Positions 14,289 to 20,000 of a DNA stretch of 20,000 nucleotides are shown here, one piece after another (within the stretch, counting starts at the first letter, position 1; the number at the start of each line of letters is the position of its first letter). Position numbers and translations under genes: made by a program. The DNA is from an uncultured virus (IMG/VR IMGVR_UViG_3300009678_000003). Lineage: Duplodnaviria; Heunggongvirae; Uroviricota; Caudoviricetes. The notes below the pieces were generated by a model. That model did no database searches. It saw only the letters and a program-made list of their open reading frames with translations, and was not told where the DNA came from. The DNA is taken from the IMG/VR virus record IMGVR_UViG_3300009678_000003; one strand, given 5' to 3'.

Positions 14289-15167
14289 ATGAACTATCGA
14301 ACGGCCAGACAAGTCTTGGGCACCCATTCAGCTTCGACCTATACCGATATCAAGCAGGCGTTTCGAAGGAAGGCAAAGGAATTACATCCAGATCACAATC
14401 CTAGCCCAACAGCCGCCGCCAGGTTTGCGACTTTGACACAAGCTCACAAGTTCCTGATGGAGTACCGTTCCCCGTTCCAATCCAGGCGCTATTCAGACAA
14501 GTCAACGCGCGCCCGGGGAATTCACAAGCGCCATCGGTGTTTTGCGCTAGTGCTTCGGCAGACGGCAGCATTGATTCTTATTCTTTGCGCCTCGGCTCTG
14601 GCCCAGACTGAGCCTTATCTGAATGTTGCTTGGGATCTAATACCGGCTACCGAGGGAGTGGCTGTCAATTACCGGGTTCAAACCACGGTCGGGAGCCTGC
14701 CGTTCATCACAGCGGCCGAGTGTGTCTTGCCGCCGTGCCTGGTGACTGGAATTGAGGCTTCGACCACCTACAAGATTCGAGTGGCCGGCATTGAAGCCAA
14801 CGGGACGGAAGGCGATTATTCTGACCCAATCAGCTTCAAGTTCTCATCGATTCAGCCCATTTCTCCAACGTCTTTGAGTGTTTCGTCGGCGACTAGCAGC
14901 CAGCCGGGGAAGATCACCAAACAACTATCCTGGTCAGCTACGACGAAGTTTAGAACTGGAGCTTTGTTTCCTGCTGGCTCAGTGGTCGAATATCGAGTTT
15001 ATCAAGCGGCGGGCAATGGACTTACGTTGGTTGTCTTCAATTCACTAGCAAATTCAATGACGGTCGATCTGGACAAAAATCGCAGCTATCAGTTCTGGGT
15101 CACTTGCATCGTCGATGGCGTGGAGTCTTTCACGTCGCCAGCAGTTCGTATCACCACTCAAACTTAG
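14289..15167 (+). CDS. J-domain (DnaJ-like) protein fused to a signal/TM segment and FN3-like domains
   Basis: IKQAFRRKAKELHPDHNP contains the HPD motif. AALILILCASALA is hydrophobic. FN3-like motifs are VAWD...YKIRVAG...YSDP and SYQFWVT. Confidence 0.75.
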   Translation: MNYRTARQVLGTHSASTYTDIKQAFRRKAKELHPDHNPSPTAAARFATLTQAHKFLMEYRSPFQSRRYSDKSTRARGIHKRHRCFALVLRQTAALILILCASALAQTEPYLNVAWDLIPATEGVAVNYRVQTTVGSLPFITAAECVLPPCLVTGIEASTTYKIRVAGIEANGTEGDYSDPISFKFSSIQPISPTSLSVSSATSSQPGKITKQLSWSATTKFRTGALFPAGSVVEYRVYQAAGNGLTLVVFNSLANSMTVDLDKNRSYQFWVTCIVDGVESFTSPAVRITTQT

Positions 15168-18437: not shown

Positions 18438-18676
18438 GCTGAGGGACCATTAAGCCATCAAAACACGCTACGATGAACCAATCAAACAGTGATTGAACAC
18501 GATTGGAGCGTTGATCCTATTAGTTTTCAACACTCGAAAAAGTCTTGCCGCTACCTTGACACGGTAGAGGCCACGTGTTCGATCCACGTCGCGCCCACCA
18601 ATCTTTCAATAAGTTACGAGCACTTTCAAAAACCGCTAAAAAGTCAGGGCATCTCTACGGGACCATCTCGAAACAA

Positions 18677-19335
18677 AGGCCGCTCGTTTTTCATGGGTCT
18701 ATCTACTTGCGTGGCTCGCTCCATCGGGTTGGCGCTATCTTTGACCTTGGCTCGCTCGGGGTTGTTGGAGCTATCCCCCTTTATGGCTCGCTCCACCAAT
18801 TTGGTTCTGTCCATATCGTTGGCTCGCTCGCCTTGGATGTTGCTATCCTGAGCGGTGGCTCACTCTTGAATGATGGTCAACTCTGGTTTCGTGGTTCGCT
18901 CTGAAACCCTGTATCTATCTCGCTGTATGGCTCGCTCGTCAATAGTGAATCTATCGCATCACGTGGCTCGCTCTTCTACATTGTTACTGTTCTATCTCTA
19001 TGGCTCACTCCAGTGGCTTGGTTCTGTCGGCATACCTGGCTCGCTCCCGTGGGGTGATTCTATCGCTTCTCTTGGCTCGCTCAAACTGCTTGGTTCTATC
19101 CTCTTAGACGGCTCGCTCCCTAGTTTTGGCACTGTCGGGGAGGGTGGCTCGCTCTCTGGAATTGTTTCTTTCCGAGCTCATGGCTCGCTCTTGTTTCTTG
19201 GACCTATCAAGCGCCTTGGCTCGCTCCCTTCTCATGGTTCTCTTCCTGAGGATGGCTCGCTCCCATATGAATGGTTCACTCCTAACCTCTGGCTCGCTCA
19301 CCTTAAATGGTTCTATCCCGCTGTGTGGCTGACTT
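18677..19335 (-). repeat. TIGR-like (tandem interspaced guide RNA) dual-repeat array, 18 units of 36 bp
   Basis: On the + strand, TGGCTCGCTC or a 1-nt variant starts at 18712, 18748, 18784, 18820, 18856, 18892, 18928, 18964, 19001, 19037, 19073, 19109, 19145, 19181, 19217, 19253 and 19290, with degenerate copies at 18677 and 19326. A second, looser repeat (consensus TGGTTCTATC) lies midway in each unit. Unique spacers of about 8 nt separate the repeats. Confidence 0.93.
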
Positions 19336-19999
19336 CCGGCTCAATCATGTGCGCATGTCCAAGGATAGCAATCGGGTAAGGCTTTGGCGGTGCGACTCCA
19401 AAGTGGTTCTGATACATGATGCCGTGGAGGTGTGCTAGAAACAGTTTTGTTGAGTAACGCTCCGCTCTTTGCTCAATCTGAGCTGGCGGCAACTTCACTT
19501 GAGAGTAAGCTTTGAACGCGTCTGTGCTCTTGTCGATTTTCTTCTTTACCAAAATTGCGTCGGCCTGGTCTTTGAATTCGAGGCGGTCGTTCTTCTCAAC
19601 TTCTTGATTCTTGCGCTGTCGATAGATTTTCCCGTAAAAGCAACTGTCTCGACCTGAGTTCTTCATAAAGCTTTGGCCGATTAGCCAGCAGAGCCGTTTT
19701 AGGCTGGCATTCCAAGGGCGCTTTTCTCCTTTGTTCCATTGCTGTCCTGGCACCAAGCCAGCGAAAGACCAGATGTGTCCAACCGTCGGGGCCTTTGTGA
19801 TGTCAATATTGGAGATCAGCCCTGCTGTCAAAACCGGCCCTATCCCAACCACACTGAGAGCCCATTGACCGTTGACATCAGATTCACAATAGGAGAGCAA
19901 GGCGCGTTTGATTTGACCCTCCAAGCCTTCGGACTTAGAGAAGAGCCATTCAAGCACAGCGCACGGTTCTCCTTCCTTTGCCATCGTTCGAACCTGATG
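19313..19999 (-). CDS. tas: Tas-like Nop-domain protein (IS110-related RNA-binding fold), 5'-truncated by the window edge
   Basis: WALSVVGIGPVLTAGLISNIDI...GHIWSFAGLVPG...PWNASLKRLCW...YGKIYRQRK...RAERY..KLFLAHL resembles the IS110 C-terminal/Nop fold. There is no SG catalytic motif after AGLxP. The frame stays open to the window end (HQVRT-MAKE). The gene abuts the dual-repeat array. Confidence 0.85.
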   Translation of the reverse strand, partial: HQVRTMAKEGEPCAVLEWLFSKSEGLEGQIKRALLSYCESDVNGQWALSVVGIGPVLTAGLISNIDITKAPTVGHIWSFAGLVPGQQWNKGEKRPWNASLKRLCWLIGQSFMKNSGRDSCFYGKIYRQRKNQEVEKNDRLEFKDQADAILVKKKIDKSTDAFKAYSQVKLPPAQIEQRAERYSTKLFLAHLHGIMYQNHFGVAPPKPYPIAILGHAHMIEPEVSHTAG

Positions 20000-20000
20000 A

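Follow-up and report, generated by a model that had tools for sequence, protein, structure and literature searches.

A phage TIGR-TasA locus whose dual-repeat array follows the 10-nt repeat and 8-nt spacer layout of its clade

How many bases of DNA does a TIGR guide read when its repeats are 10 nt long and its spacers only 8 nt? As described in the founding report on TIGR-Tas systems, arrays contain two alternating repeats of 8–12 nt and spacers of typically 9 nt, box C of the repeats being CCA and box D being UG (Faure et al. 2025, PMC12045711). The question is raised by a 20,000-nt stretch of DNA from an uncultured tailed phage (IMG/VR record IMGVR_UViG_3300009678_000003), the whole of which we call the window. 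An initial annotation had noticed a tract of alternating repeats that it regarded as a variant of the TIGR grammar, and it offered two readings: either each guide specifies an 8+8-nt target, or the ninth spacer base is a fixed G, which would place a central GC, reminiscent of the core dinucleotide of IS110 elements, in every target.

The dual-repeat TIGR array was analyzed for positions, spacing, and per-position information, and it occupies positions 18676–19335 of the minus strand. In the RNA (minus-strand) sense it runs from 19335 to 18686 as 18 units, 16 of 36 nt and two of 37 nt, each consisting of an edge repeat, GAGCGAGCCA, an 8-nt spacer A, a loop repeat with the consensus GAtAGAaCCA, and an 8-nt spacer B. 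The edge repeat is nearly invariant, as had been proposed: its plus-strand form, TGGCTCGCTC, occurs between 18712 and 19290 in 13 exact copies and in four with one mismatch, at a spacing of 36 nt and twice of 37 nt, and no exact copy lies outside the array in the 20-kb window. The array is bounded by a degenerate opening edge repeat (AAGTCAGCCA, 19335–19326) and, at its 3′ end, by a truncated closing one (GAGCGGCCTT, 18685–18676). Thus, the tract first delimited as 18694–19325 does contain the array, but the array extends ∼10 nt further on each side.

Per-position information, computed from the 16 units that are exactly 36 nt long, bears out most of the grammar that had been read by eye. Edge positions hold 1.46–2.0 bits and both 8-nt blocks only 0.02–0.52 bits, in agreement with the view that just 8 nt per spacer vary freely. 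The loop repeat is conserved only at G1, A2, A4, G5, C9, and A10, with 0.4–0.8 bits at position 3 and at positions 6–8; its interior is as variable as claimed, and all five loop variants quoted at the outset are present in the array. The GA and CA ends hold for both repeat types, but with exceptions. All 18 loop repeats end with CA and 17 start with GA, the remaining one being AAGAGAACCA, and the two 37-nt units can be parsed only with an 11-nt loop or a 9-nt spacer. In the first of these minus-strand units (19263–19299), the additional base belongs either to the loop repeat, then 11 nt long (GAGTGAACCAT), or to spacer B, then 9 nt long; the second (18974–19010) has the edge repeat GAGTGAGCCA and the loop repeat GAACAGTAACA. 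The four 18-mers that the initial annotation gave as example targets, from units 17, 15, 11, and 9, are correctly composed of spacer A, GC, and the reverse complement of spacer B. Tandem Repeats Finder, run at a score of 30, did not report the array, and its units may be too unlike one another overall.

Both flanks of the array were read as well. Its first unit (19300–19335, minus strand), read directly from the sequence, overlaps the end of tasA: the degenerate edge repeat and spacer A (19325–19318) encode the final tasA residues, and the TAG stop codon (19315–19313) falls within the first loop repeat (19317–19308). At the other end, no terminator-like site was found 3′ of the array on the minus strand, and RNA folding of that region was no better than that of shuffled sequences; an intrinsic terminator after the array has been described as typical (PMC12045711). 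Directly 3′ of the array, the plus strand holds a tRNA-like fragment at window positions 18541–18600. The Rfam tRNA model scores 18.8 bits here, below its 29-bit cut-off, with model positions 9–63 placed at 18541–18589; ARAGORN calls no tRNA, and the fragment is followed by CGCGCCCACCA, which resembles an acceptor 3′ end. This fragment may derive from a tRNA and form the core of a phage attachment site.

The nature of the array is clarified by the gene that it adjoins. The window holds the 3′ 688 nt of tasA (19313–20000, minus strand), the 5′ part lying beyond the window end. The full product of 275 aa (P0002) was recovered at full length with 100% identity, and the same locus is found on three metagenome contigs with 0 mismatches over 8685 nt. 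A phmmer search of the PDB matched TasH (7.4e-10) and TaTasR (1.3e-9) over the Nop domain. In an AlphaFold model (pLDDT 87.9) the N terminus forms a helical coiled coil, and the first 10 Foldseek ranks for this model are all TasH or TasR (probability 1.00, TM 0.53–0.71), followed by the IS621 recombinase (E 1.3e-3, TM 0.48). On sequence similarity and predicted structure, then, the protein beside the array belongs to the Tas proteins and combines a coiled coil with a Nop domain. No HNH or RuvC family matches its 275 aa in Pfam at E ≤ 1, and it is therefore assigned as a TasA. Its only near-threshold Pfam match is Transposase_20, in the Nop region (E 4.8e-4), and the HNH segment of SpTasH has no counterpart in this protein.

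The residues that matter for function in a studied relative can be followed into this protein. In SpTasH, Y289/H296 are the processing residues (PMC13421893), and W203/K211 are the pair for heteroduplex stacking and DNA unwinding. TasA residues Y255/H262 align with the former at the same 7-residue spacing, and W152/K160 align with the latter. Among 35 relatives, H262 is invariant, and Y255, W152, and K160 are each at least 90% conserved. The alignment thus places a putative Tyr/His processing pair in the C-terminal loop of the TasA Nop domain. The adjoining Tas protein and the dual-repeat units uphold the assignment as a TIGR guide array with the minus strand as RNA strand, and we conclude that the locus is a real, intact phage TIGR-TasA with a dual-repeat array.

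Relatives show whether the layout is peculiar to this phage. We fetched 165 loci encoding relatives of the window TasA, of which 121 have an array of at least four regular units, 19 have too few regular units, and 25, several of them very short, have none. These loci yield 101 distinct arrays, and 92 have a period of 36; periods of 34, 35, 37, and 38 also occur among the relatives. Read in the tasA sense, 84 of the 92 distinct period-36 arrays have the layout R-A-N6-C-N followed by N8. Judged from their printed consensus, four of the other eight (L063, L065, L100, and L348) look like the same grammar rotated by 1–2 bases in the automated parse; L117 and L118 are canonical UG..CCG arrays with 9-nt spacers, and two are AT-rich variants. 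Even where the period is shorter the variable block holds: in four of the seven distinct period-34/-35 arrays (L033, L106, L108, and L109, again from the printed consensus), it is the loop repeat that is shorter, and the spacers remain N8. The clade itself is large, with 2365 proteins at E ≤ 0.001 and at least 498 relatives in IMG/VR; a protein-pattern search of IMG/VR with the partial TasA gave no match, but the alignment query did find relatives.

The same layout is found in Salicola phage CGphi29 (NC_020844), whose SpTIGR-TasH is one of the three founding experimental systems (Faure et al. 2025, PMC12045711; structures 9W03, 9W04, and others). Read directly, its array is AAGCGAGCCA-N8-AAGACAACCA-N8, the same 10+8 layout as in the window, and its edge repeat AAGCGAGCCA is identical to GAGCGAGCCA at nine of 10 positions. 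The window, SpTIGR, and the clade thus all have C-C-A, 8 variable nt, and a conserved purine plus A that opens the 10-nt repeat; box D in the window repeats is R-A-(pairing base), not the canonical UG. Repeats of 10 nt are also mentioned for tasParB-tasA arrays in the Methods of PMC12045711, and the 10+8 grammar had already been noted in print. The description of the grammar as a variant does not, therefore, survive: the 10-nt repeat with an 8-nt spacer is the norm of a large TasA clade and no new variant.

Within this clade, the two repeats of an array resemble each other at their ends. The final base is alike in edge and loop in 82 of the 84 arrays (A,A in 56, G,G in 25, and C,C in one), an agreement to be expected of motifs that a symmetric dimer reads. 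We also observed that both repeats end with CCG instead of CCA in 25 of the 84 arrays (L069, L072, L075, L076, L107, and others), the change being common to edge and loop within one array.

The comparison also fixes the register of the 10-nt repeat against the canonical one. Over 1786 half-units, repeat position 1 is G at a frequency of 0.90, A at 0.08, T at 0.016, and C at 0.004, and A2, G5, and C9 are each at least 98% conserved. Positions 3 and 8 covary: of 34 distinct repeat consensus sequences, 27 have a pair there (G-C in 19, T-A in five, A-T in three). Positions 4 and 7 likewise covary in edge-type repeats (C-G in eight, T-A in five, A-T in one, T-G in one). The loop repeat of the window often lacks the 3:8 pair, its consensus having T3 opposite C8. 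A box C/D pair and an extra pair in the edge repeat are known for UG-N4-CCA repeats (PMC12045711), the same GCGAGCC core recurs in the archaeal arrays L117 and L118, and the canonical geometry has intervals of 3+9+2 nt with 4-nt gaps (TIGRFinder methods). The covariation of 3:8 and 4:7 therefore sets the register: A2 to A10 correspond to the canonical 9-nt repeat, and G1 stands in the slot of canonical spacer base 9.

This register makes the alternative of a ninth base geometrically reasonable. According to it, the spacers would have 9 nt with a fixed last base, the opening G would pair with C, and targets would be 18 bp long with a central 5′-GC-3′, a fixed motif inside the target that would loosely resemble the core dinucleotide of IS110 bridge RNAs. 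A ninth pair with a fixed target C is possible in the geometry, and both TaTasR and PlTasA are reported to pair nine bases (PMC12045711; 10.64898/2026.08.11.744272). We nevertheless hold this reading to be unlikely. SpTasH, which has the same grammar, is reported with eight pairs, its spacer A being termed "8 nt" and its heteroduplex falling one bp short of the nine that TaTasR and PlTasA form (10.64898/2026.08.11.744272), although such an 8-bp heteroduplex is known for a TasH only, which is 19–21% identical to the window TasA in structural alignments. Moreover, slot 9 admits practically only purines (C and T together 0.02), and it therefore looks like a structural constraint and not like a base that is read out. 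The proposal of a ninth base fixed as G is thus right about the slot, as located by covariation, but not about the base, which across the clade is a purine.

The central GC fares worse than the slot. If a core were kept, the slot-9 bases of the A and B sides should match. They agree in 1191 of 1471 tigRNAs, and the mean of within-array permutations is 1190.6, with 984 of 2000 permutations reaching the observed agreement; 228 of the 1471 tigRNAs combine one G with one A. The observed agreement equals the permutation mean, and therefore no palindromic core is kept. The window TasA, furthermore, lacks any recombinase or nuclease domain for which a core would be required. Eight-plus-eight targeting is accordingly the likelier reading than 9+9 in our analysis, because SpTIGR and 84 of 92 clade arrays share the layout and the SpTasH heteroduplex is one bp shorter; the 8+8-nt alternative of the initial annotation agrees with the report on the solved SpTasH (10.64898/2026.08.11.744272).

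Searches for natural targets were made at three scales. For self-targets we modeled a target as spacer A, 0–3 nt, and the reverse complement of spacer B, in both orders and with up to two mismatches. The masked window gave one match. In 25,286 bp, comprising the window and 5.3 kb of the identical contig L313, there were two matches, each with two mismatches, and no excess over shuffled pairs (mean 1.61, SD 1.21; 48 of 100 shuffles reached the real count). Cross-targets of 751 units from 59 arrays, sought on both strands of 1.73 Mb of loci, amounted to two exact matches and again no excess, the controls giving a mean of 3.42 (maximum 9) for shuffled pairs and six for pairing across the edge. 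The paired-target enrichment that had been put forward as the sign of targeting was thus absent, against shuffled-pair controls, from both the 25,286 bp and the 1.73 Mb. Short spacers are said to give many false matches, and most natural targets are described as impossible to determine (10.64898/2026.09.09.750476).

IMG/VR was scanned with four of the 18 units (11, 9, 15, and 17), in one order, with a gap of 0–2 nt and without a shuffled-pair control, a design of low power. It returned 33, 37, 84, and 36 stretches for these units, respectively, and after dereplication the counts at gaps of 0/1/2 were 10/12/8, 12/3/14, 26/18/11, and 15/2/11. A central GC was found in three of eight, none of 14, none of 11, and two of 11 of the respective gap-2 matches. 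The total of five in 44 lies above the 2.75 expected under equal base frequencies, in the direction of a fixed ninth base, but it is not significant (hand Poisson ∼0.15), and the GC-centered matches, whose flanks are unrelated, all come from two of the four units. Flanks of the IMG/VR matches are mostly unrelated overall; the few groups with homologous flanks may represent conserved sequence. No test, then, supported a GC core, and the IS110-like core of the initial annotation is unlikely.

A related and more speculative idea can be framed around the same slot. In the TasA clade and SpTIGR, the ninth base of an ancestral 9-nt spacer might have become fixed as a purine without ceasing to face the DNA, giving targets of 8+2+8 bp. 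We think this quite improbable. If it were true, targets would carry a C opposite each G, giving GC, or more generally a pyrimidine opposite each purine, and a system that has been described as motif-free would possess an internal motif of its own. Target space would be cut ∼16-fold, and the motif might mark the sites from which new spacer pairs are acquired.

Comparison with known systems places the locus among the dual-repeat ones. It shares with SpTIGR-TasH a phage-borne dual-repeat array 3′ of tas, units of 36 nt, and the Nop-domain fold, and both the Y/H processing pair and the W/K unwinding pair are conserved in the window TasA. The proteins differ: SpTasH has an N-terminal HNH nuclease and cuts DNA, whereas the window TasA has only the coiled coil there, and the two are ∼20% identical in structural alignments. 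In the RNA, the slot-9 purine is A in SpTIGR and G in the window, and at position 3, the pairing base of box D, the two Sp repeats have G where the window loop repeat has T, C, or G. Canonical arrays of the TaTasR type (UG-N4-CCA, 9-nt spacers; PMC12045711, 9MTY) likewise have a 36-nt unit, alternating repeats, and a CCA box C, and they share with the window clade a box C/D pair and a further pair in the edge repeat, both of which covariation reveals in the clade. By comparison, the window repeat has one additional base at its 5′ end and its variable part one base fewer, box D begins with A and not U, and there is no RuvC domain. Nuclease-free Tas proteins with dual-repeat arrays are also described for FpTasA, which binds 36-nt RNAs, and for tasParB-tasA loci (PMC12045711).

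A more distant case came to light in the isolated cyanophage Mvi-JY20 of Microcystis (PP438412; L002 3150–3460), which has a dual-repeat array 3′ of a Tas-like gene annotated "hypothetical protein," with 24.5% identity to the window TasA. Its repeats, ATGCGAGCC and ACGAAACCC, flank 9 variable nt; box D is preceded by an invariant A, and the third box C base varies. This array is followed by a terminator-like stem and T-run.

Two further groups of known systems were compared with the locus. IS621 uses a fixed core dinucleotide. The recombinase of the IS110 bridge RNA system has RuvC-like DEDD and Tnp domains, and the core dinucleotide is common to the guide loops. The window TasA is related to these enzymes in fold, as the Foldseek match to IS621 (E 1.3e-3, TM 0.48) and the weak Transposase_20 match indicate, and IS110/IS621 guides are likewise two-part and flanked by box C/D-like motifs (PMC12045711). 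However, TasA lacks a RuvC-like or Tnp catalytic domain, and its guides are arrayed and not carried by a single bridge RNA. Because those domains are missing, strands would not be exchanged, and the mechanism would have no use for a core dinucleotide. An IS110-type bridge RNA system was rejected for this locus on the same absence of domains and on the absence of palindromic slot-9 pairing within tigRNAs. The archaeal and eukaryotic box C/D s(no)RNPs (Nop5/Nop56/58) also have a Nop-domain dimer on a coiled coil and an RNA with two guides between box C-like and box D-like motifs (PMC12045711). TIGR guides differ from these in targeting DNA and not rRNA, in having no K-turn, L7Ae, or fibrillarin, and in being arrayed and cut to 36 nt.

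The remainder of the window is phage, with tail fibre, endolysin, and other phage families, and megablast of the whole window against the isolated phages in the collection found no similar phage. On the identical contig L313, the 5.1 kb upstream of tasA encodes VRR-NUC, DNA methyltransferase, and HTH_17 proteins together with small unknowns. The VRR-NUC nuclease and N6/N4 DNA methyltransferase genes (L313 1951–3542) lie 1.6–3.2 kb upstream of tasA on the same strand, and the small, excisionase-like HTH_17 gene lies 0.8 kb upstream. A linkage to ParB was rejected, there being no parB-like gene in this 5.1 kb. About 1.4 kb from the array, the window encodes a 100-aa phage protein (17022–17324, minus strand) with a ClpX-type C4 zinc finger (Pfam E 1.4e-13). 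Farther away is a 292-aa protein (14289–15167, plus strand) that joins a DnaJ (J) domain to a fibronectin type III domain, an unusual pairing in a phage late region.

Could the array be a decaying or inactive relic without working guides? Its loop repeat is less conserved than in most relatives, notably at the low-information position 3 and positions 6–8, and the two 37-nt units and the missing terminator-like site point the same way. Such decay is nonetheless very unlikely. Of the edge repeats, 13 of 17 are exact and the other four differ at one base, and within the loops the shared motif positions G1, A2, G5, C9, and A10 are kept in nearly all copies. The structural account of TasR describes a loop interior without clear sequence-specific protein contacts (PMC12045711). 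The tasA gene is intact with its conserved residues present, and the locus is identical on three metagenome contigs. That the tract is no guide array at all is scarcely credible: as a protein-coding 12-codon repeat it would fit the overlapping plus-strand ORFs (18489–18851, 18575–18904, and 18870–19379; 109–169 aa) and a period divisible by three, but the 37-nt units disrupt any frame, relatives have periods of 34, 35, 37, and 38, and the variable blocks show no third-position pattern, while a CRISPR array would have one 25–36-nt repeat in place of two alternating 10-nt repeats with 8-nt spacers (PMC12045711), and the neighboring protein is a Tas protein.

The region is, then, probably the guide array of a phage nuclease-free TIGR-Tas system, with tasA followed by the dual-repeat array on the minus strand and with 8+8 pairing. 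By homology to studied systems, tasA and the array would be on one transcript, because the array starts inside the final tasA codons. TasA itself would cut the precursor within each edge repeat through Y255/H262, yielding 36-nt tigRNAs; a Y/H processing dyad is described for dual-repeat systems (10.64898/2026.09.09.750476). A TasA dimer would then hold the RNA, one Nop domain on the reunited ends of the edge repeat and the other on the loop repeat, and both Nop domains would read the same motifs, namely a 5′ R-A, the covarying 3:8 pair, and a 3′ C-A or C-G. The conserved purine before A, G here and A in SpTIGR, would be bound by protein or structure and would read no DNA.

Pairing would follow the pattern seen with SpTasH, the 8 nt of spacer A pairing with one DNA strand and the 8 nt of spacer B with the other strand in the adjoining segment. 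The expected target is thus spacerA(8), 0–2 bp, and the reverse complement of spacerB(8). Published work describes 36-nt tigRNAs, tandem-spacer targeting, and a tolerance of TasR for 1–2-bp gaps (PMC12045711). The order of the spacers is predicted from the C-5 rule together with 3′ overhangs of 8 nt (PMC12045711), and the box D-proximal spacer ends would meet at the target center. Since TasA has no nuclease, the complex would only bind and bend DNA, and its effect would be to repress transcription or to interfere with a host gene or another mobile element. A repressor function has been reported for TasA with stem-loop tigRNAs, not with dual-repeat ones (10.64898/2026.09.09.750476).

For the TIGR-Tas family described in 2025, this locus is one more intact phage TasA locus, with 18 guide units, and in that sense an ordinary result. 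For the TasA clade, it comes with a reading rule: C-A/G, eight variable bases, then R-A, with positions 3:8 and 4:7 covarying and the extra purine in the place of canonical spacer base 9. Targets of this clade should therefore be predicted with 8+8 bases and a 0–2-bp gap, not with 9+9.
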